Shown: one piece after another, positions 8,545 to 17,684 of the stretch
Layout of the letters: the number at the start of each line of letters is the position of its first letter
Numbering within the stretch: the stretch's first letter is position 1
DNA from: Candidatus Pelearchaeum maunauluense
GTDB lineage: Archaea; Thermoproteota; Nitrososphaeria_A; Caldarchaeales; Caldarchaeaceae
NCBI GenBank assembly: GCA_030059675.1
Contig: JANVYQ010000002.1
Span: 64,001-128,000, forward strand
Length of the DNA stretch: 64,000 bases
Direction: 5' to 3'
Program-made: the position numbers and the translations under genes
The notes under the pieces: generated by a model
Database searches by the model: none
Told to the model about the DNA's origin: nothing
What the model saw: the letters and a program-made list of their open reading frames with translations, nothing else

Positions 8545-8825
8545 ATGGACCAGGCCAGGAAGATAATACTCCAGAAAGAGCTCAAGAAATAACATTAGGA
8601 AGCTTCAGAGAAACCCGTAAGCTTCAACTGGAAGGACGTAGGCTGGGCCTTGGGAAGCCTAAAAGTGAATATAGGTCTCCTGAAGGACGACGTAGAACAG
8701 AGGAACGCCATCCAAGCCTACACAACCACCAAGGACATGCTGGAAACCCTCGGGAAACTAAAGAACCTCCTATCCCTACACACAGACATCAGGGGATTCT
8801 AAGCGGAAACGTTTCCGCTAGATGG

Positions 8826-9158
8826 GTGGTAACAGCGGGAACGCTTAAAGTGAGGCTTGACGTAGGGATAGTTGAAGTGGTTCCGATGTCGGGGAAACGT
8901 GGGGAAAGGGTTGGGGAACGTGTTCAGCGATTTAAGGAGCTTATAAAGCAGGGCTACCGCGTAAGGGAGGCTCTGAAGGAGAGCGGGTTGAGCGGACAGC
9001 AATATAAAAAGCACGACCACGAAATATGGTCTGATCCCGAGATGGAGTCATATAAGCCCGAGCCCGTGATGCAGAGAACTGAGGAGCTGAATGACTCCGA
9101 CTCTGTAGAGAAGGAGGTGCTCTGGCCGGTTAGGATGGAGTTCTTAAGATCGAACTAG
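8826..9158 (+). CDS. Hypothetical protein, possibly plasmid- or virus-derived
   Basis: ORF preceded by perfect palindrome AGCGGAAACGTTTCCGCT (8802-8819). Confidence 0.4.
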   Translation: MVTAGTLKVRLDVGIVEVVPMSGKRGERVGERVQRFKELIKQGYRVREALKESGLSGQQYKKHDHEIWSDPEMESYKPEPVMQRTEELNDSDSVEKEVLWPVRMEFLRSN

Positions 9159-9351: not shown

Positions 9352-9825
9352 TTGCATTTACTCGTAGACGCCGTGAGAAAAGTACAAAACGTTGTAAACA
9401 ATGTTGTGTTACTCATCATTAGGGCTTCAAGAAAAGAAATGACCCTACATAGAAAATTTGGTATCAGTGTTGTGTTGACAGGCTATGTTCCAGAAAATGA
9501 GCAACCTCTATACTTTAGTGCTGCAGACGTCTTTGTATTTCCAAGCGACGATGATGTTGTAGGAGCGTTAGGTGCTGTAGCTAGGGTGCTATGCTATTCA
9601 AAGCCTATTATAGTAACTGATGTCCCAAGATTTTACGAGCTGAAGAGAGATGGCGTAGTAATGGTTGTGCCTAGTGGGAATGCAGAGTCACTAGCGAAAG
9701 TAGTAATGAATACACTCAACAATTTGAATGGTGTAAAAGCAGGGAAAATGCTTCAATATTGTAGGGAGAGATCTTGGAAGGTTATAGCTAGTAGGTGGCT
9801 TGAGATCATCAAGCAACTTGCTTGA
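9352..9825 (+). pseudogene. GT4 glycosyltransferase, C-terminal fragment
   Basis: GYVPENEQPLYFSAADVFVFPS...SKPIIVTDV. Confidence 0.7.
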
Positions 9826-9841
9826 GGGTTGTAGGGTGGTT

Positions 9842-10353
9842 ATGGATTCTAGTGGTTTTGTTCTTAGTGTTGTTGTGCCTACGTATAATGAGAGGGAGAA
9901 TGTAGGGATCTTATAGAGAGGATTGATAGGGCTTTGAGGGTTTGTGGTGTCCCCTATGAAGTTGTTATTGTTGATGATAGCTCGCCTGATGGTACTGCTG
10001 ATTATGCTGAGGGGTTGTCTAGGATCTACCCTGTTAGGGTTGTTAGGAGGCCTGGTAAGCTGGGTCTCTCGTCAGCTGTTTTAGATGGTGTTAGGGCCTC
10101 TAGGGGTAGCGTAGTAGCTGTTATGGATGCTGACCTCCAGCACCCGCCTGAGGTTCTGCCCGCTATGCTTAAGAAGTTAATGGACTATGGATGCGATGTG
10201 GTTATAGCGTCGCACTATGTGGAGGGTGGCTCGGTGGGTAGCTGGTCCTTCCATAGGAGGTTAGTGTCTTGGGGGGCTATACTGGTGGCGAAGGTACTAC
10301 TCCCTAAGGTGAGGGGGTTAAGGACCCTATCTCAGTCCACTGCCTGGTATTGA
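9842..10353 (+). pseudogene. Polyprenol-phosphate mannose synthase (GT2), frameshifted and truncated
   Basis: VVVPTYNERENV upstream in another frame; IVDDSSPDGT; VMDADLQHPP. Confidence 0.75.
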
Positions 10354-11024: not shown

Positions 11025-11659
11025 ATGAGGAAATACGAGCTCCCACAGCTACCGTATTCCTACGAGGCGCTGGAGCCTTATATATCCCGCGAAATAATGA
11101 CGTTGCACCATAGCAAGCATCATCGGGCCTACGTAGACGGCGCTAATGCTGCCTTAGAGCGCCTAGAAAAGCAGCGCAGAGGAGAAAGTCAGGAGAACGT
11201 AAGAGCGATTTTGAGGGACCTTAGCTTTAATCTATCAGGCCATAAGCTGCATAGTGTATTTTGGTGTAACATGGCGCCGCAGGGCAAAGGAGGAAAACCA
11301 GGAGGAGCAATAGCAGACCAAATAAACAAAGACTTCGGCAGCTTCGAAGCATTCAAGAAACAATTCAGCGACGCAGCAAAAAACGTAGAAGCAGTAGGAT
11401 GGGCAATACTAACATACGACCAAGAATCAGACACCCTACTAATCTACCAAGTAGAAAAACAAAACTTCATGCACCCACCACACCTACCACTACTACTAAC
11501 ACTAGACGTATGGGAGCATACGAGGCTGGGCGTATTGCCCCCTCGGCTCAGGCCTACTACCTCCAGTACAAGAACGACAGAGCAAGCTACGTGGAGCAGT
11601 GGTGGAACGTGGTTAACTGGGACGATGTCGACAAACGATTCTCTAAGGCCAAAGTTTAA
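11025..11659 (+). CDS. sod: Fe/Mn superoxide dismutase; exons 11025-11519 and 11552-11659, 200 aa after splicing
   Basis: [23 protein letters not shown]|AYYLQYKN; frame restored by removing 32 nt. Confidence 0.95.
11520..11551 (+). other. Bulge-helix-bulge mRNA intron (32 nt) in sod
   Basis: Central helix GAGC(11514-17)/GCTC(11546-49); 3-nt bulges ATA and AGG; inner stems CGAGG/CCTCG and GGGC/GCCC; canonical cuts after the 2nd bulge nt give CAT|GCC. Confidence 0.9.
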
Positions 11660-11757
11660 CTAAGTTTTCCACATAATATTTTATATCCCAAAATTATTTT
11701 GTTTTTTATAAAATATAGGGAGGGGAGTGGTCGGGTATAGTAGTCTATCTGCTCAAT

Positions 11758-12469
11758 TTATCGCTGTCTATGTGGACAATATCCATAGAATCCTTTCGCT
11801 AGGTTGCAGTTAAAGCATAGAACTTGGAATTCCTCAGGAAAGTTGTTTTTAACTATCCATTTATAAAAGTGTATTCCCCAGCCTACTTGCTTGAAATGTC
11901 GTAAACCTCCTCCGTTTACGTGGTCTATTGATAGGAATTCAAGTCTAGTCTCGCCACAACAACTACAACGTGGGACTCCCCTGCTATAATACCTGAGTAT
12001 TTCCTTTCTTTCCTCAGCTAGTCTGATAGCCACTATAGACTTATGAGGGCATTATTCCATAAAGTGCTATTGCTTTATTGCAGTTGTAGCAGAGAACTCT
12101 AAAGCCTTCAGGGAAATTGTTCTTGATGATCCAGCAATAAAACTCTGTCCCTCCCCTAATCCTATAGCGACGCTTCTGTAAACTGCCATCCTGACGTATA
12201 TGGTCAATCGAAAGGAACTCTATTCTATCCTCGCCACAACATGTAGATTTGCCACCGTAGCGTTGTATCACTAAGGATTTAATCCGTCTTCTTCGCCGTC
12301 TCTCTCTTTCTCTGCGAATTTCGCGAAGTCTATCCCGACGTCGCCAATATGATTCACACCATATCTTGCGTACTCGCTCTTTGTTTCTTTCGAAATAGCG
12401 AATCCAACGACGATGTTGTTTTATTTTCGCATCATCTAACTTAGAGGAACTACTGCTCAATGCCTCCAC
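11758..12469 (-). CDS. Arg-rich tandem (double) HNH endonuclease split by a 1-nt frameshift near 12052
   Basis: Two repeats of CCGE.R.EFLSIDH...WI.KNNFPE.F.VLC.NCN; deleting one A from GGAATAATGC fuses them as ...YGICPHKSIVAIRLAEE..., about 236 aa. Confidence 0.75.
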
Positions 12470-13250
12470 CTCCCTACGCCCCTAGCACCAGCTCTACGGG
12501 AGCGCCTGCTCCTAAAAATCGTAGAGCTAAGCGCCTTTGTTCTACCGCCATCCAGGGCTTGATGGCGGTCCCGCATAGGCAGGGCCTTCATACTCCCCCT
12601 TGGTAACATATTGGGGGGCGGCCCGCTTGGCCGCGAGCCCCTGCCGTGCAGAACCGCCATCAGGTCGGCGACGCTAACTGTATTCAGAAGCACTCGCCGG
12701 AACTAGCTGGCAGATGACACTCGGCAGAAGGATAGCAGTATTTCCATCACCTGTCCAGGTTCTCCTCCCGTGTCTTCTCCAGGATACCCTCTACGCTGCC
12801 CCGTTCACCGCGTGCTCCAGGCATAGTTAAGCCCTTCACCGCACGCTCCAGGAAACAGTGTAGAAGTATCCGTTCACCGAAGACATGGGAGGATATCGGC
12901 CGTCATCTAGGTTCTGCATGCGGAGTATTGGCTCCGGGCCGGAACAGCCCTAGAAGCACCCTTCACTACTTGGCTCCTGGAGTCTAGCTAAACCTCCTTT
13001 CACCACCAAGCTCCAGGCAACCCCTAGAGCTGACCAACCCTTCACCACCAATACACCCACATGCAGCTCACCCATCAGGCCGACCTCCGTGAGGCTCAGG
13101 CTAAAACTCCCTTGAACATCAGGCGGAAGCCTAAGCCCCCGAGGCTCGGCACCATAACCCGACCACCCTCCGCCCGGACTCAAATAACTATCCGGGCGTC
13201 ACCCTATTTCAGGTGAGGACAGGAAAGAGAGAGGCTGGGCCGGTCGGGCT
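12470..13250 (-). ncRNA. Large structured ncRNA with at least six kink-turns
   Basis: No credible ORF; long helices, with G-U pairs on the minus strand in arm A; repeated RGU-GAA / (C)CNGGA k-turn strands in arms 12914-13066 and 12763-12893. Confidence 0.75.
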
Positions 13251-13256
13251 ACTTAA

Positions 13257-13625
13257 CTAAACATAATATTCTATTGCTCTAACTGGTTCTAGCTTTCTTG
13301 TTATCGGATTTACTCTCAGCCCTAGAGTCTCTAACGTTGTTACGCCTATCAATGGTTTTTCGTTTTCGTCCGAGAAAGTTACTAGAACTGGTCTCCTGGT
13401 GTTGTTTATCTCTATATCCGCTAGGCCTGCGCCTCTGCTTATAACTCTTCCATCAGCAAGCTCAACCTCAACCTCGTACCTCTTCTCTATCCCAACGAGC
13501 TCGGTGACTTCCTTAGGAACCTTAGTAAAGGTCGCACCAGTATCGGCTACACCATCAAGCTCGTAAGAACACTTAGGCCCGTGTATTCTGAAGCGGACAA
13601 GCACCTCTCCCATGCTACCTCTCAC
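13257..13625 (-). CDS. Clan AA (retropepsin-like) aspartyl protease
   Basis: ADTGATFT; VELADG; PLIGVTTLETLGL. Confidence 0.85.
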   Translation of the reverse strand: MRGSMGEVLVRFRIHGPKCSYELDGVADTGATFTKVPKEVTELVGIEKRYEVEVELADGRVISRGAGLADIEINNTRRPVLVTFSDENEKPLIGVTTLETLGLRVNPITRKLEPVRAIEYYV

Positions 13626-13987
13626 CTATATTTTCTTTACATAAGAATCTCTTTAGCTTGTCTATGAAGGCCTGAACTATTTCTGTCCCTCTCCTAACGA
13701 AGTCATCGCTAAGCCAGCCTTCATAGGAGTTCGTAGAGGCTGTTAGCTACGTGAAATGCGTCTACAAGCCCTTGCTCTGGATTCTCCCTATCAAGCTGTG
13801 AGACAAATTGGAATAGGCTTGCGTGAGTCCCCAGCGATATGCCCTTAGACGCGGCGACAGCCTTAACTGCTTCAACAACGGCTAACCAAAGCTTCCCCGA
13901 CGCCTGCGCATAATCTCCATTCCTCAACATCTCCTCAGCCTCCCTGAGGAGCTTGCCGCTAAGCTTAAGACGTTCATTAACGCTCAA
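13621..13987 (-). pseudogene. PaREP1 family, frameshifted at the C-terminus
   Basis: QASGKLWLAVVEAVKAVA...ANSL; the NFYE-equivalent segment is shifted. Confidence 0.7.
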
Positions 13988-14470
13988 AGACCTTCCGAAA
14001 TCAATTTACTTAGCAACCCCTATATACACATGACGCCAGCCAAAGGCGATACGCCCACTCTTTGCATCATGCGGAGAAGAGGCAGGCCATTGATTACTGC
14101 TGTGTTAACAATAAAGCCGGGCGGAAGGCGCAGTATGCTGTAGGTCATCTAGACCCCCTCCTCAACTCCCATCACCCAGACATAGGGTCTTTTGTTTTGT
14201 CTGGGTGGGCCGGCCACTCTACCCCTCCCAGCCACCCACCCCCAGCATGGATGGCTTCTAGGGGCTATGGGCAGGCCGGACCAGCCCGCCAGGCCCATTA
14301 AGGCACGCCAATTAGGCGCCTGGGGCGGCTCTTATGAATCATCCCCGAAGAAGCCCCACCCCCTCCGTCGCCGGAGAAGGCCACGCTCAGGACCCAAGCG
14401 TGTTTAAAGGGGCTCTTAATCGGGGACTCATGGTCCCAAATGGCTCACAGACAAACCTGCTTATCCAAGT

Positions 14471-14530
14471 AACTTGAGAAGAAACCTGACCAGAAACTTG
14501 AGAACTAACTTGAGCAGAAACCTGAAACCA
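14471..14530 (+). repeat. Five tandem 12-bp repeats (AACYTGA core)
   Basis: Units at 14471, 14483, 14495, 14507, 14519, preceded by ACCTGCTTAT. Confidence 0.8.
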
Positions 14531-14559
14531 GCTGAGAAGGCTGTTTAAGCAGTAAAGGT

Positions 14560-14610
14560 ACTGGTCAAGTTTTTACTCAAGTTTCTACTCAAGTTACTTT
14601 TATAAACCAG
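14560..14610 (-). repeat. Three inverted copies of the same 12-bp repeat
   Basis: ACTGGTCAAGTT TTTACTCAAGTT TCTACTCAAGTT. Confidence 0.75.
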
Positions 14611-14935
14611 TTCTCCATACGAGCCGGACACGAGTTGGTTCTTAGGCTAAATCATATAGTTTTCATGAGTGATGTTATCTTGCTTAGTAAAGAAAATATA
14701 TAGACCGCACAAAGCTTATCAGCTGATAATTTTCCTCCTTATATTAATCCTGCCCTTAAGCTATTACGCGCTTAATCTAAATGTTGTGGTCTGAGATTAG
14801 GCTAGGGTTATTATGGAAGGGCTGTCTTCTATGACGTGTAGAGCTCAATTTCGCCCCCTAAACCGAGGCAGACAATACGGTGAGCGAAGCTTATAAGACC
14901 TATAGAAATCGGATTAAGGGCGAAGAGCGATATTA

Positions 14936-15148
14936 TTATATTGTTCCGGCAGTTATTTCCGCTAACTGTTTTAGTATTCCCCTCTTCTTTGCATTCCACA
15001 CTTCTATTCCCATAACCATACCTCTATCGTCCCTCTCAACTATTATCCCATCCTCTAACTCTTCAACCGACTCAGAAGGCCCGTCCCTCAAGTGAATGTA
15101 TAGAATATCATTCTCATGATCGTAGCTAAATCTCAAGCCCTCACCCAA
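14936..15148 (-). CDS. DUF2283 antitoxin-like protein
   Basis: YDHENDILYI...GIIVERDDRGMVMGIEVWNA. Confidence 0.8.
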   Translation of the reverse strand: MGEGLRFSYDHENDILYIHLRDGPSESVEELEDGIIVERDDRGMVMGIEVWNAKKRGILKQLAEITAGTI

Positions 15149-15411
15149 ACACCCCTATCCACCTTTCTTCTTATAAGCTTATCTACGCTCGACGAGTAAT
15201 AAACTGTCACAATTCTCACCATATCATCCCTTCTAGTAAAGACTATTACCAACATTCTCTGCCCTATAATCCCTATAGCTACCAATGTATCAGATTCAAC
15301 GTCGCGGAATAGCATGTTAGGCCTACTAATAATTTGCAAGACGTCATTCATATCAACTCTTCTTACCCGTATCTTCTCCTCAGCATGCCTAGTTAGCTCA
15401 ATCCTAACCAA
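15133..15411 (-). CDS. DUF4258 (RelE/BrnT-like) toxin
   Basis: IELTRHAEEKI...VRIVTVY; overlaps the DUF2283 gene. Confidence 0.75.
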   Translation of the reverse strand: MVRIELTRHAEEKIRVRRVDMNDVLQIISRPNMLFRDVESDTLVAIGIIGQRMLVIVFTRRDDMVRIVTVYYSSSVDKLIRRKVDRGVWVRA

Positions 15412-15565
15412 GCTATTAAAACAAACTTTGCCGATTAATTAAACATGCGAAGGATACTAAATTAATACCCTAGTCCTTGATTTTTAGAGTAAATAAGAGA
15501 CCTGGGTTATAAGCAAATACACCACATACGGATTAAGAGCTAACTATTAATAATTGCGTTATTCT

Positions 15566-15629
15566 CCGGCTCAAGTATCTATTCAAGTTTCTTCTCAAGT
15601 TTTTGGTCAAGTTATTTTTATAAGCAGGT
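15566..15629 (-). repeat. Four inverted copies of the 12-bp repeat ending ATAAGCAGGT
   Basis: Reverse complement matches the 14455-14530 end. Confidence 0.75.
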
Positions 15630-15878
15630 ATTTTGTGTCTGTTTCTTTATATTTTTCAATGCATAGGTCTTTTAGGGGGGTACATATTAGGTAGACCATA
15701 GGCTACTTGTAGTTGTTAGCAACGTGAGAATCGTGTGAGCGAGCTTTTTATCCTTATTTAATTAATTTCCTTTAAGGGGTAAGGGGATGGGGTTTGATTG
15801 TTCTTTTTGGGTATCGAAGGCGAGAGAGTCGGGATATCCTGTGTGAGGAGGATCTTGTGTTGATTATTTGAAGGAGAG

Positions 15879-16202
15879 TTGTGTGTAAAGAAACCTTCAG
15901 AGGCAAAGGAGGAAATCGTCTATACGCCTGCACCACAGCCTACCGAAAAAGCTGTGAAGGAAAAGAAAGAAGAAAAAACTGCTTTTGAAGAATACACAAG
16001 AATATATCTTAAATTAAATGTTCCCATAGGGCAAATATCTACTATTGCCAAAATTGTAAACTACTTGAATGGCTTGTTCAAAGAATGTAAAGTGAGAATT
16101 GAGATAACTGCGCAAAACGGAAAAATTAGGGCTACTGATTACGAAAACAAAATAGAAGAAGCTCTAAGACAGGCGGGGGTTGATGTTGAAAGTAAAGAAT
16201 GA
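15879..16202 (+). pseudogene. C-terminal fragment resembling DUF499 ATPase proteins
   Basis: IEITAQNGKI..DYENKIEEALRQAG tail; no good start. Confidence 0.4.
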
Positions 16203-17431
16203 AATTGCCGCTTGCCTAACAGCAGTTGTCCGAAATTGCAGGCGACAAGCTTGTAAATGTCAAAAAGGATTTAATACGAGAAGGATATTGTCCTAAACGT
16301 GATGGGAGGCTATAAAAATGAAGGTAGTTTCATTTACTTTTTGTAGGTTCGCTTGTATATTTGCTGTATAACAAGACAATTTTAGGAAAGAATTTTACTC
16401 TATTTCCATTTAGGAAAATAATTCGTAAAAAATACTTAGAACAAATTAATAGACGATGAATGGAGAGAATAATACGAGCACGTCGCACAACAAGCGGGTA
16501 TCTGCCTTTGCTCACTTCGTTCGTTCCAAATTTGCAAGCTTTAATCAATTCTCGTGTTAGGTATATGCGTTCAGAAGACTTAAAAGCCTAATAGTCAGAT
16601 TAATACTAAAGTTAAAGCTGAGATGGTAAAATGATCAAAGTTATCAGAAAAGGTAGAGTTTTAGAGAAAGTGCTTGCAAGAACGCCAAAAGAAGCAGCCT
16701 CCAAAATCTTAGGGATTAACCCAGCTAAGCTGAAGCTCATCAAGAAAACTGAGAGGGATGACTATGTTTTGGATTCGAAGGGGAAAAATTGAAGTTTGGG
16801 AAGTTTTGCCTGCTGTGTGGGATTATGATATTGGACCAATAGCTCGATCCGTTTGACTAGAGATACCAGACCCAGAGACTAGGTCGAACCCCAAAAACCC
16901 GATCGCGTTCGTAGTTGGTGTCGTGGGTGCTCTGCTAAGAAGTATTCGGTTCCCTCCGTTTAGATTTCCTTAACAAGCTAACTACTTTACGAACTTGCTG
17001 AGGAGGATAAATGCAGACTCCAGCTTTCGATTTTGTCTGAGCATCGACCGCAGTAGGGGTGCGGGTGGAGCTGTATGCACATGGTTTGATCTTATAAGGC
17101 AATTCTTGATCACGCAATTCCGAAGAAATCGAGAAAAAATCGTGAACATAATTGCAAGTAGAATCGATGATACGGCAAAAGGAGAGCTTAGCAAGAAGCA
17201 CGAATATTCAAGGGCAAAGAACGATAAGAGAAGTGGAGGTTGTATTGAAAGATGAGATAATAGATAAGAAAGAGTATCAGGAAGACATGAGACTGAGAAG
17301 CTTAGCCCTTAATTTAAACATGGAGAAAGAGTAAAAGCCAGCGATCTTGCAGATGTTGTTCTTAAAATCATCAAGGACCCATTGAGCGATTGAACGGTGT
17401 TGTTACTGATATTGCGAGAAAGCTTGGTTAT

Positions 17432-17611
17432 ACACCTTCCACTACTACTAACACTAGACGTATGGGAGCATACGAGGCTGGGCGTATTGCCCCCTCGGCT
17501 CAGGCCTACTACCTCCAGTACAAGAACGACAGAGCAAGCTACGTTGACACTTGGTGGGTACTGGTCAACTGGGACGATGTCGACAAGCGCTTCTCCAAGG
17601 CTAAAGCCTAA
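17432..17611 (+). pseudogene. Second copy of the sod 3' end, including the same BHB intron (17472-17503)
   Basis: [12 protein letters not shown]|[35 protein letters not shown]; no 5' part. Confidence 0.9.
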
Positions 17612-17684
17612 TTAAGTTCCCCGCACATATATTATATCCCAAATTTTATTTTTTTAAAATATAGGAAGAAGTCTTCTCACAAAT

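Follow-up and report, generated by a model that had tools for sequence, protein, structure and literature searches.

Group I and archaeal introns combine a large structured RNA with a peripheral open reading frame (ORF), closed by pairing across the ORF, and LAGLIDADG and HNH endonucleases are interchangeable at one site; their distribution is sporadic, and decaying copies carry frameshifts and truncations. The archaeal bulge-helix-bulge (BHB) motif, formed by the two ends, has a 3-nt bulge on each strand, with 4 bp between the bulges. Both HNH and LAGLIDADG homing enzymes recognize DNA through the protein, the HNH/His-Me finger core having the pattern CxxC ... DH ... N ... CxxC and LAGLIDADG endonucleases being expected to possess two LAGLIDADG motifs. 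Another arrangement is that of HEARO/omega RNAs, which have several hundred nt and are located upstream of an HNH-motif nuclease in a mobile context; IscB possesses RuvC and HNH domains in about 400-500 aa, with the 5' guide taken from the flank. Large and elaborate noncoding RNAs of mobile or island DNA are also represented by ROOL, GOLLD and raiA, compared here through Rfam only.

Regarding kink-turns (k-turns), those of the Kt-7 type and the C/D type are found in archaeal L7Ae-binding RNAs, such as C/D and H/ACA sRNAs and RNase P RNA. The Kt-7 fold is composed of a Watson-Crick C stem, a 3-nt bulge, tandem sheared G.A/A.G pairs and then the NC stem, the 3b.3n position often being A.G, and box C/D k-turns place an RUGAUGA-like strand against a CUGA-like strand, closing a stem. 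More than one turn per helix is described for P12 of RNase P RNA, where one paper (PMC5499556) presents a 'double K-turn' that folds the helix back, one turn's NC helix doubling as the 3-bp C helix of the following turn.

The minus strand of the window (the whole stretch of 64,000 nt from Candidatus Pelearchaeum maunauluense that was analysed) encodes a structured RNA at about 13215->12475, with the sequence reported in the preliminary description. Together with a homing-endonuclease ORF and a short 3' tail, it forms a compact cassette of 1.5-1.9 kb, and the available copies point to an undescribed mobile RNA-plus-nuclease element, with the nuclease type differing between copies. The region is tentatively read as the gene for a ~730-nt structured RNA, the conserved core of a selfish RNA-homing-endonuclease cassette whose ORF is nested as in an intron. 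The features are as follows:

11470..11719 (+): left direct repeat, SOD gene 3' end and downstream DNA, abutting the tail
11718..11757 (-): conserved 3' tail, with ACCCGACCACUCCCCUCCC at 11736-11718
11758..12469 (-): homing-endonuclease gene with tandem HNH, broken in two by a +1 frameshift near 12052
12469-12041 (142 aa) and 12033-11758 (91 aa) (-): HNH ORFs, halves of the ~232-aa gene
12475..13215 (-): RNA body, with 5' domain, arm A, arm B, connector and 3' domain
12484..12748 (-): connector and 3' domain, from alignments and fold
12535-12484 (-): terminal hairpin, containing the conserved AUUUUUA (12519-12513)
12662-12560 (-): long three-way hairpin of the 3' domain
12763..12893 (-): arm B, in which three Kt-7-type k-turns follow a 15-bp basal stem
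Arm B (-), Kt-7 sites: GAA at 12875, 12837 and 12806; GGA at 12780, 12818 and 12849
12829-12823 (-): UAACUAU in the apical loop of arm B
12897..13082 (-): arm A, with a basal stem, a basal C/D-like k-turn and three Kt-7-type k-turns
Arm A (-), Kt-7 sites: GAA at 13043, 13001 and 12964; GGA at 12935, 12977 and 13014
Arm A (-), basal k-turn: GA at 13076-13075; bulge GAU at 12907-12905 and GA at 12904-12903
13095-13083 (-): hairpin GCCUC-NNN-GAGGY, after the block GGGAGUUUUAGCCUGAGCC
13093..13111 (-): invariant block GGGAGUUUUAGCCUGAGCC, identical in 3/3 copies
13120..13203 (-): 5' domain, with hairpin 13196-13169 and stem 13176-13167/13129-13120
17432-17666: right direct repeat copy, bracketing with 11470-11719 an island of ~5.7 kb (11720-17431)

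The minus-strand region is supported as an undescribed structured RNA, in agreement with the preliminary description, which recognized no known family. The Rfam covariance-model search gave zero matches at gathering score in the window and, at E<=10, just chance miRNA/RsmW rows at positions 12000-13700; likewise, the available portions of the literature covered by a full-text search contained no description of a comparable RNA. The size of ~780 nt given at first has to be reduced: a large RNA is present, but homology to the other copies, which runs in alignments from ~13215/13203 up to the ORF start, backs about 13215/13203->12484, or 720-740 nt. Its GC content is 58% (0.57-0.59), compared to about 0.42 in the flanks. 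The minimum free energy (MFE) is -371.9 (z -9.9) for the minus strand and -297.6 (z -8.7) for the plus strand, coding controls having fold z values of -1.2 and -1.9. The minus strand, already proposed from G-U pairs, is favoured by 34/33/38 G.U against 2/6/7 A.C in the three copies, a count with a bias, as this strand was the one used for fold prediction.

Two arms with three k-turns each had been proposed, and six strict Kt-7 sites agree with this, but a seventh turn had been missed, a C/D-type one in the basal part of arm A; seven k-turns are thus present in one RNA, four in arm A and three in arm B. Each arm has three internal loops with the order 6-7-bp C stem, RGU, GAA ... GGA, C stem. 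The strict motif, in which a 6-bp C stem is followed by an RGU bulge and GAA faces GGA, occurs at six distinct minus-strand sites and none on the plus strand, compared to a mean of 0.025 and a maximum of 1 in 2000 dinucleotide shuffles. Genome-wide (3.57 Mb, both strands), there are 52 sites, with 6 in the window RNA and 2 in the second copy, and every other 800-nt bin holds at most one. Looser definitions of the motif gave no discrimination, and the loose-motif clusters C10 and C18 elsewhere in the genome were rejected as coding DNA. At the six sites, the Kt-7 motif stays as the helices change across copies. In the basal turn, CGGCC-U-GA-UGGG (13082-13071) pairs with CCUA-GAU-GA-CGGCCG (12911-12897), placing AGAUGA (12908-12903) opposite CUGA (13078-13075), as in box C/D k-turns; it is kept in 3/3 copies, with UAUGA / CCGA and CAUGA / CCGA as the equivalents in the copies L002 and L003, respectively.

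The k-turns of the window RNA have A.G at 3b.3n, which places them in the self-folding class, and both arms have a regular spacing of about 21 bp and 6-7 bp between turns. Unlike in RNase P RNA, a 6-7-bp C helix is common to two turns set back to back, with the third turn ~21 bp away. In addition, the covariance model R1, built on arm B, finds arm A (31.7 bits, E 1.8e-5), indicating that the arms are an internal duplication. Unlike C/D sRNAs, H/ACA sRNAs and RNase P RNA, the window RNA possesses neither guide boxes nor an RNase P core, and its almost continuous helical arms lack a pseudouridylation pocket; no Rfam match to these RNAs or to SRP RNA was obtained. The genome encodes an L7Ae family gene (102.5 bits), so coating of the k-turn RNA by L7Ae is plausible. 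Relative to ROOL, GOLLD and raiA, likewise without an Rfam match, the window RNA is archaeal, based on k-turns and coupled to an endonuclease ORF.

The consensus fold has 209 pairs, with 93.4% of cells paired, and 23 pairs are changed on both sides, compared to 11.6+-2.4 in shuffles (0/500 reach 23) and 2-9 in slid controls, which bears out the earlier view that the motif is kept amid helix replacement as a built-in covariation; the signal is formed by few events, as no more than three full sequences exist and two of these have suffered damage. Outside the arms, the loop of the hairpin 13196-13169 holds AUAGUUA (13191-13185), and the apical part of the stem 13176-13167/13129-13120 holds GGAGGGUGGUCGGGUU (13171-13156). 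A kissing loop had been suggested, and the 7-nt complementarity of 12829-12823 with 13191-13185 exists, but only 6/7 positions are kept, by eye, in the sole other copy having both loops, and no compensatory change of this pairing is seen among the copies. The closing G.U of the hairpin 13095-13083 is replaced by G-C in the metagenome run X1 as well as in the other copies. Moreover, the strand 12674-12667 can close on 13203-13196, and the terminal hairpin, followed on its 3' side by a GGAGG-type ribosome-binding site, has six pairs with compensatory changes when the window is compared to L002 (helices 25 and 26).

Three assembled copies of the RNA were found, plus fragments in two metagenome runs (X1 and X2); no RNA run was found to contain the stretch. 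The RNA is conserved at 72-73% identity among copies, and the ORFs are exchanged. By BLAST and covariance model, the RNA is held by 2/76 genomes of the class and 2/401 sampled genomes of the phylum, with no further copies in either set; the short matches L112 and L113 were rejected, as they are in coding DNA and below 7 bits with the model. The exact 19-mer of the invariant block is absent from metagenome and viral contigs (0 in each) and is present in genome contigs in one archaeal record plus three bacterial chance matches. The truncated copy L002 has no 5' domain: its 5' end is lost at a junction, formed by microhomology, to an ATPase gene, which is itself truncated and antisense to the copy. 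Its arm A has lost the bulged strand of one k-turn. In L003, the apical part of arm A is deleted, leaving a k-loop, and the last 3' hairpin diverges; a TATA-like box precedes its RNA, which by eye is not present in the window copy. A close relative in run X1 has the RNA and an HNH gene without the frameshift. Of the 40 differences displayed between X1 and the window, six are in predicted helices, five of them keeping or improving the pair (13005, 13083, 12638, 12660 and 12547) and one breaking it (12624).

The HNH nuclease noticed downstream of the RNA is supported by matches of PHROG HNH families to the window ORFs (E 1.2e-4 and 3.9e-5), but the 142-aa ORF is the first half of a frameshifted gene, as the intact relative P0001 (232 aa, 83% identical) covers both ORFs. 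P0001 is matched by phrog_2255 'HNH endonuclease' (E 2.4e-12), and the base at 12052 is missing from the contigs of X1 and X2. The HNH/His-Me finger motifs are visible in the translations; Pfam HNH and Endonuclease_7 reach 0.04-0.2 for the HNH protein, below cut-off, and no relatives in the PDB were found by sequence. Its matches are of the phage-type homing-endonuclease/EndoVII-like kind alone, with no RuvC domain in the Pfam search, so it is not IscB-like, and no IscB/TnpB-like domain was found in the ORFs behind the RNA. The conceptual likeness to HEARO/omegaRNA proposed at first holds as to the structural difference, the RNA architecture being unrelated and HEARO giving no Rfam match at E<=10, but an IscB-like partner and a flank-derived guide are absent, the protein being a 232-aa tandem HNH (142+91-aa ORFs in the window, without Pfam RuvC) that is replaced by LAGLIDADG in other copies.

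In L002 and L003, an HTH-LAGLIDADG gene is located in place of the HNH gene. PF14528 (LAGLIDADG_3) is above cut-off for both (E 4.9e-17 for L003 and 4.7e-7 for L002), so these ORFs probably encode LAGLIDADG homing endonucleases, with 27% identity over 268 aa between them. The ORF exchange point is exactly the start codon, as the RNA homology runs to the ribosome-binding site and start codon. A nuclease ORF directly follows the RNA in 3/3 copies, and no ORF-free allele was seen. Meanwhile, GC-rich RNA is present upstream of 0/2 relatives of the HNH gene on viral contigs, the ORFs of which have a GC content below their surroundings, and the RNA is present in 0/80 loci with LAGLIDADG relatives (nhmmer and model R1).

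The 3' tail is complementary to 13165-13156 in the RNA 5' domain, with 10 bp perfect and up to ~15 with a bulge, and it is conserved in 3/3 copies, behind three different ORFs. Both substitutions in the L002 tail are A->G opposite U and, therefore, wobble-compatible. No compensatory change of the tail pairing was found within this RNA family, and the duplex energy is not significant relative to shuffled tails, 69/500 being as good; the tail could also be a shared terminator. This pairing, between the 5' domain and the cassette's own 3' tail, is the sole guide-like complementarity found and is intramolecular. When the cassette ends, known to a few nt, are cofolded, one helix results, with 10 bp and, past a single 3-nt bulge, another 5 bp, and no BHB could be drawn by hand at these ends.

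The window cassette is at the edge of the island, reading outward, and cassette and island both end at about 11720. The rest of the island has nothing in common with the other copies. At L028, the cassette is within an insertion of ~3.8 kb adjoining tRNA-Gly halves; altogether, the three copies sit in unrelated, island-like places, sharing nothing beyond the cassette. In the genome G002, the tail and a relic of the HNH gene are found at the same place beside SOD, evidence of vertical persistence and decay no less than of mobility. For the gene upstream, only paralogues are present in relatives, and its DNA has no match in four relatives; in a same-genus genome, the contig stops at the SOD stop codon. 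The L002 junction was rejected as an empty site, being a microhomology deletion into the ATPase gene. Since no clean empty site was found among the relatives examined, mobility as a unit is deduced from the context only.

In the tentatively preferred reading, RNA, ORF and tail would form one transcription unit, as no promoter-like gap precedes the ORF, and the conserved U5 tract (AUUUUUA) in the last hairpin, a possible leaky terminator, may serve as a leaky stop. The ORF would be nested between RNA body and tail, like endonuclease ORFs in peripheral loops of introns, and the k-turns, self-folding or clamped by L7Ae, would bend each arm back, giving a compact, heat-stable particle. The endonuclease would move or maintain the cassette at the DNA level, and the RNA would be a cis-acting carrier, keeping the cassette tolerated and nuclease expression low. 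Seven k-turns and invariant single-stranded blocks look over-engineered for a mere carrier or leader. It is doubtful that the RNA instead functions in its own right, as an RNP scaffold, a cage or a decoy, from an autonomous noncoding gene belonging to a mobile element, with free-standing endonucleases repeatedly settling beside this gene by intronless homing, the conserved RNA gene being their target. The much better conservation of the RNA than of the ORFs, the two unrelated nuclease families at the same junction, a U5 tract that could terminate an independent RNA and the lower GC of the viral-contig ORFs, like that of recent invaders, are consistent with it; however, the ORF accompanies the RNA in every copy, occurrence in 2/401 genomes is too rare for a host function, and the conserved tail past the ORF can pair with the RNA, in favour of a single nested unit. 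It is rather unlikely that an undescribed intron-like or ribozyme element is excised, with RNA and nested ORF, from a host transcript, by self-splicing or by a splicing endonuclease with circularisation. An ORF nested behind a large conserved RNA and ahead of a tail pairing with the 5' part of this RNA, together with the exchange of HNH and LAGLIDADG there, is the classic anatomy of intron-borne endonucleases; a second family (see below) has a matching anatomy with sharp common ends, and the organism itself would splice mRNA, as suggested by a 32-nt SOD insertion with a hand-drawn BHB, and has large insertions in its rRNA genes. Nevertheless, no copy interrupts a gene in sense, as the window cassette follows a stop codon, is flanked by this and intergenic DNA and has no evident exons, and L002 is antisense to the ATPase gene; group I and group II matches are absent at E<=10 (12000-13700), no BHB could be drawn at the cassette ends, the tail pairing having just one 3-nt bulge, and no joints were seen, among DNA contigs only. 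K-turn-rich arms are not known as a feature of the described intron classes.

A role as a long cis-regulatory leader, where L7Ae on the k-turns would repress or time the translation of a toxic endonuclease, is quite unlikely. The RNA homology does reach the ribosome-binding site and start codon, and two papers (PMC5539422, PMC6298567) report that L7Ae represses translation through k-turns in 5' leaders; however, the leader k-turns are said to require protein for folding (PMC6298567), unlike turns with A.G at 3b.3n, and the turns of the window RNA are 300-600 nt from the start codon, away from the ribosome-binding site. Seven turns, duplicated arms and long-range helices also far exceed the needs of a switch. 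Finally, the RNA had been proposed as a guide or scaffold partnering the HNH nuclease, in which case 13171-13156 would recognize a site containing CCCGACC; this is very improbable. A 10-16-nt RNA segment is complementary to DNA at the 3' edge of the cassette, CCCGACC is also present 5' of the RNA (13248-13242), and two different nucleases would share one RNA-defined target. However, the complementary site is inside the conserved cassette, its tail travelling along, an IscB/TnpB-like domain is absent, and homing enzymes of both families read DNA by protein. Moreover, 2/3 RNA copies carry LAGLIDADG, the window HNH gene is frameshifted, and the upstream regions of homologous HNH genes, the comparison advised in the preliminary description, gave no RNA in either viral-contig locus. 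As the relatives of both nucleases lack the RNA, its role as a guide is not supported.

If this RNA is transcribed, no other natural RNA outside the ribosome is known to be as dense in k-turns, and its duplicated arms with regular turn spacing would be a natural counterpart of synthetic L7Ae/k-turn nanostructures, readily suited to testing the rules of k-turn folding. The stable core of this homing-endonuclease cassette would be an RNA gene, not a protein gene, with two nuclease families at one junction.

A second, unrelated family of a large RNA, a LAGLIDADG ORF and a pairing tail was found at 18 metagenome loci (L053/L058 type). Its RNA is structured and has about 1.35 kb, the LAGLIDADG ORF is homologous, and the tail holds 9-17-nt complements to the upstream RNA, with the tail variants of L053 and L059 both G.U-compatible; the family has sharp common ends. 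Rfam gave no match for L053/L058, with no group I match at E<=1. The L053/L058 profile has a 2.9-bit match to the window at 14276-14212, which was rejected. The second family hints at a wider RNA-nuclease class, and both families together suggest thermophilic archaeal RNA-nuclease elements missed by Rfam/Pfam annotation. That they are two families of one unrecognized class of archaeal mobile elements, with large self-organising RNAs, braced by seven k-turns in the family of the window, and a long-range-nested endonuclease ORF, processed at the RNA level, is fairly unlikely; such processing would require a new ribozyme or endonuclease-dependent excision with circularisation, and it would render the element harmless anywhere in a transcript. 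If it were true, these would be a third intron-like kind beside group I/II and BHB introns, and excision or catalysis would reopen the origin of archaeal introns and their endonucleases.

As side observations, the 32-nt insertion of the SOD gene is absent from G002; it was drawn by hand as a canonical helix-bulge-helix-bulge-helix, which the MFE fold did not recover. The rRNA genes carry large insertions.

The RNA gene (minus strand, 13215→12475) corresponds to a GC island, with a GC fraction of 0.57-0.59 compared to about 0.42 in the DNA on both flanks, in which no convincing ORF is found. Rfam contains no match to its RNA, whether at the gathering score or up to E ≤ 10, in agreement with the preliminary description of an undescribed noncoding RNA.

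Domains of the RNA gene
5' part of the RNA, minus strand: 5' hairpin, read as RNA
3' of the hairpin, minus strand: stem, apical part with GGAGGGUGGUCGGGUU (13171-13156), read as RNA
13111-13093, minus strand: 19-nt block, invariant across all copies
13082-12897, minus strand: arm A
12893-12763, minus strand: arm B
3' of arm B, minus strand: connector
12662-12560, minus strand: long three-way hairpin
12535-12484, minus strand: terminal hairpin, followed by a GGAGG-type ribosome-binding site and the ORF start at 12469

Each arm has three internal loops in which C stem-RGU-GAA lies opposite GGA-C stem, composed of a 3-nt bulge, G.A and A.G pairs and A.G at 3b.3n. Under the strict definition, the minus strand has six sites and the plus strand has none; 2000 dinucleotide shuffles average 0.025 sites and never exceed 1, confirming the two arms with three k-turn loops each. 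Genome-wide, it is present at 52 sites on both strands, six of them in this RNA and two in a second copy (L002), while looser definitions are swamped by purine-rich coding DNA. A seventh turn, of the box C/D type, is located at the base of arm A and is retained in all copies. The order along each arm is one turn, a helix of ~21 bp, two turns and a short capped NC stem, the paired turns standing back to back on a common C helix of 6-7 bp. This layout differs from the RNase P 'double K-turn' as described in PMC5499556, where a single 3-bp helix serves as NC helix for one turn and as C helix for the following one. A covariance model of arm B recovers arm A (31.7 bits, E 1.8e-5), showing that the arms arose by duplication. 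Natural deletions respect the k-turn motif, as L003, from another genome, has lost the apical part of arm A with a k-loop remaining, and L002 has lost one bulged strand.

The second copy, L002, lies on another contig of the same genome (72% identical) and the third, L003/L028, in one other genome (73%). Further copies were not found in 76 genomes of the class (BLAST and covariance model), in a 401-genome sample of the phylum, or among viral and metagenome contigs queried with the exact invariant 19-mer. A protein identical to the L003 ORF product is recorded from a Calditenuaceae archaeon. Contigs from a vent metagenome DNA run (X1) match 26 of 30 bins at 90-99% likeness, with loose ends that point to at least one more diverged arm-B variant, and a hot-spring run (X2) contains an L003-like fragment and an HNH contig. 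Among the 40 differences listed (112 more exist), six are within predicted helices, five of which keep or improve the pair; the other breaks it, in a small hairpin that also carries indels. At the basal turn, the 3b and 3n positions changed together among the differences listed.

The RNAalifold consensus of the three copies has 209 pairs, with 93.4% of cells paired. Changes on both sides affect 23 pairs, against 11.6 ± 2.4 after shuffling (0/500 reach 23) and 2-9 in slid controls, so that the proposed covariation is borne out. The minus strand, favoured earlier from G.U pairs, is also upheld: G.U pairs number 34/33/38 against 2/6/7 A.C in the three copies, a count biased because the fold was predicted on that strand, and independently the folding energy is 74 kcal/mol better there (-371.9, z -9.9, versus -297.6, z -8.7; two coding controls have z -1.2 and -1.9).

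Regarding the nuclease, the 142-aa ORF and the next 91-aa ORF are two halves of one gene, both covered by an intact HNH relative (P0001, 232 aa, 83% identical); the window carries one extra base near 12052, which neither the X1 nor the X2 contigs have. The gene product consists of a tandemly repeated CxxC...DH...N...CxxC module; its profile matches are to HNH and endonuclease VII families of phages (phrog_2255: E 2.4e-12 for P0001, 1.2e-4 and 3.9e-5 for the halves), with Pfam matches only below cut-off. Thus, the proposed position upstream of an HNH nuclease holds in the window, where the gene is split; however, in L002 and L003 the ORF at the same place encodes an HTH-LAGLIDADG protein (PF14528), and these two are just 27% identical to each other. 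The window-L002 RNA homology extends to the start codon. It is thus the RNA that stays constant between copies, and the nuclease that varies.

Downstream of the stop codon, each of the three different ORFs has the tail ACCCGACC(N)ACUCCC..., and U-rich sequence follows. The window tail is perfectly complementary to 13165-13156 over 10 nt, extending to ~15 bp with one 3-nt bulge, and the complementarity in L003 spans 9 nt. L002 has no 5' domain, and the two substitutions in its tail are A→G changes that face U. A conserved tail complementary to the 5' domain would place the ORF within the fold of the RNA, on positional and conservational grounds only, the pairing energy not being significant against shuffled tails (69/500).

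The data fit a selfish RNA-endonuclease cassette, in which the RNA would be the selected, conserved carrier and the nuclease gene a nested, replaceable part. A guide or scaffold RNA for the nuclease, as first proposed, is the least supported interpretation: two viral-contig HNH relatives, located in DNA of 32% GC, are not preceded by a GC-rich RNA and give no match with nhmmer, 80 metagenome loci with LAGLIDADG relatives hold no copy of this RNA, and no IscB- or TnpB-like domain is present. Within the cassette reading, the RNA may be a folded carrier only, form a ribonucleoprotein that is itself active, or be excised like an intron; intron-borne endonuclease genes likewise lie inside an RNA fold, an arrangement suggested here by the tail. 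No known family fits the RNA, and no described counterpart of its architecture was found in the literature at listing and abstract level; the cassette is therefore rated, from three sequences, as probably lying outside known kinds.

The window cassette ends at ~11720, and leftwards lie the 3' end of a SOD gene and its downstream sequence. This DNA is present as a direct repeat at 11470-11719 and 17432-17666 (plus strand), identical over the first ~105 nt and then divergent, bracketing an island of ~5.7 kb; the cassette lies at the island edge and is oriented outward. Besides the cassette, the island contains a retropepsin-like gene, a PaREP1/HEPN gene and a BrnT/DUF2283 pair, none of them common to the other RNA copies, and no integrase was seen in it. 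A relative (G002) lacks the RNA but has the SOD gene and the tail, together with a degraded 3' remnant of the HNH gene. A short microhomology joins L002 to a P-type ATPase gene at codon ~273, in antisense orientation to that gene. At L028 the cassette is in an insertion of ~3.8 kb that two relatives lack, flanked by tRNA-Gly halves and inverted duplications. The surrounding elements (L028:8314-8449, 8790-8828, 11802-11877, 11952-11981 and 12005-12141) comprise a full tRNA-Gly gene, isolated copies of its 5' half and its 3' half in the opposite orientation, and inverted duplications of 50 nt, the footprint of a tRNA gene integration followed by inversion.

Eighteen of the 80 metagenome loci form one cluster (L053, L058, L059, L060, L074, L076 and 12 further; e.g., L058:4572-6905), where a homologous HTH-LAGLIDADG ORF is preceded by 0.9-1.35 kb of 60-65% GC with no Rfam match. 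The module contains a promoter-like TTATATAAA, the GC-rich RNA, the ORF and a tail; in six loci, homology begins at one point and stops at one 3' motif, with differing flanks. The cluster's alignment has 252 pairs, 20 with compensatory changes, and the first hairpin covaries cleanly. The tail motif, present in 17/18 loci, is complementary over 9-17 nt to a motif of the upstream RNA, which occurs in the 5 loci whose sequence extends far enough upstream; the two tail variants are G.U-compatible. Its C-rich part resembles the window tail; homology between the two RNAs was not demonstrated by comparison. A convergent tRNA gene lies closely downstream in 7/20 loci scanned. One inverted arm at L028 also resembles this tail, and the nucleotide profile of this second family matches another LAGLIDADG-like segment of the genome that contains the window (G000:C15:12465-12681, E 7e-17). 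At another locus, L063:3010-3078 (plus strand), a DUF3800-X RNA (44.1 bits, above the Rfam gathering score) precedes, by ~120 nt, a LAGLIDADG ORF that belongs to the same protein family.

Both window copies of the SOD gene (11515-11546 and 17469-17500, plus strand) carry a 32-nt insertion directly after the DVWEH codons, shared with a same-genus genome (G001) and absent from G002; since 32 is not divisible by 3, the mRNA must lose this insertion. It can be drawn by hand as a putative bulge-helix-bulge mini-intron in a protein-coding gene (outer helix, 3-nt bulge, 4-bp GAGC/GCUC, 3-nt bulge, inner CGAGG/CCUCG), a shape that the MFE fold did not return. A further region, at 14090-14440 (minus strand) and 14470-14610, comprises a GC-rich block (0.56-0.62) with no ORF or Rfam match and, beside it, a group of inverted repeats of AACTTGAG-like units. 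Two short glycosyltransferase ORFs at 9352-10353 (plus strand; 157 and 139 aa), with partial Pfam model matches only, look like gene fragments beside the island. Elsewhere in the genome, the 23S rRNA gene (L008, G000:C14:10397-14670) spans 4274 nt against a 2987-position model and the 3' part of the 16S gene (L009, G000:C18:5-1390) 1386 nt for 638 model positions, so that both contain large insertions, possibly introns.
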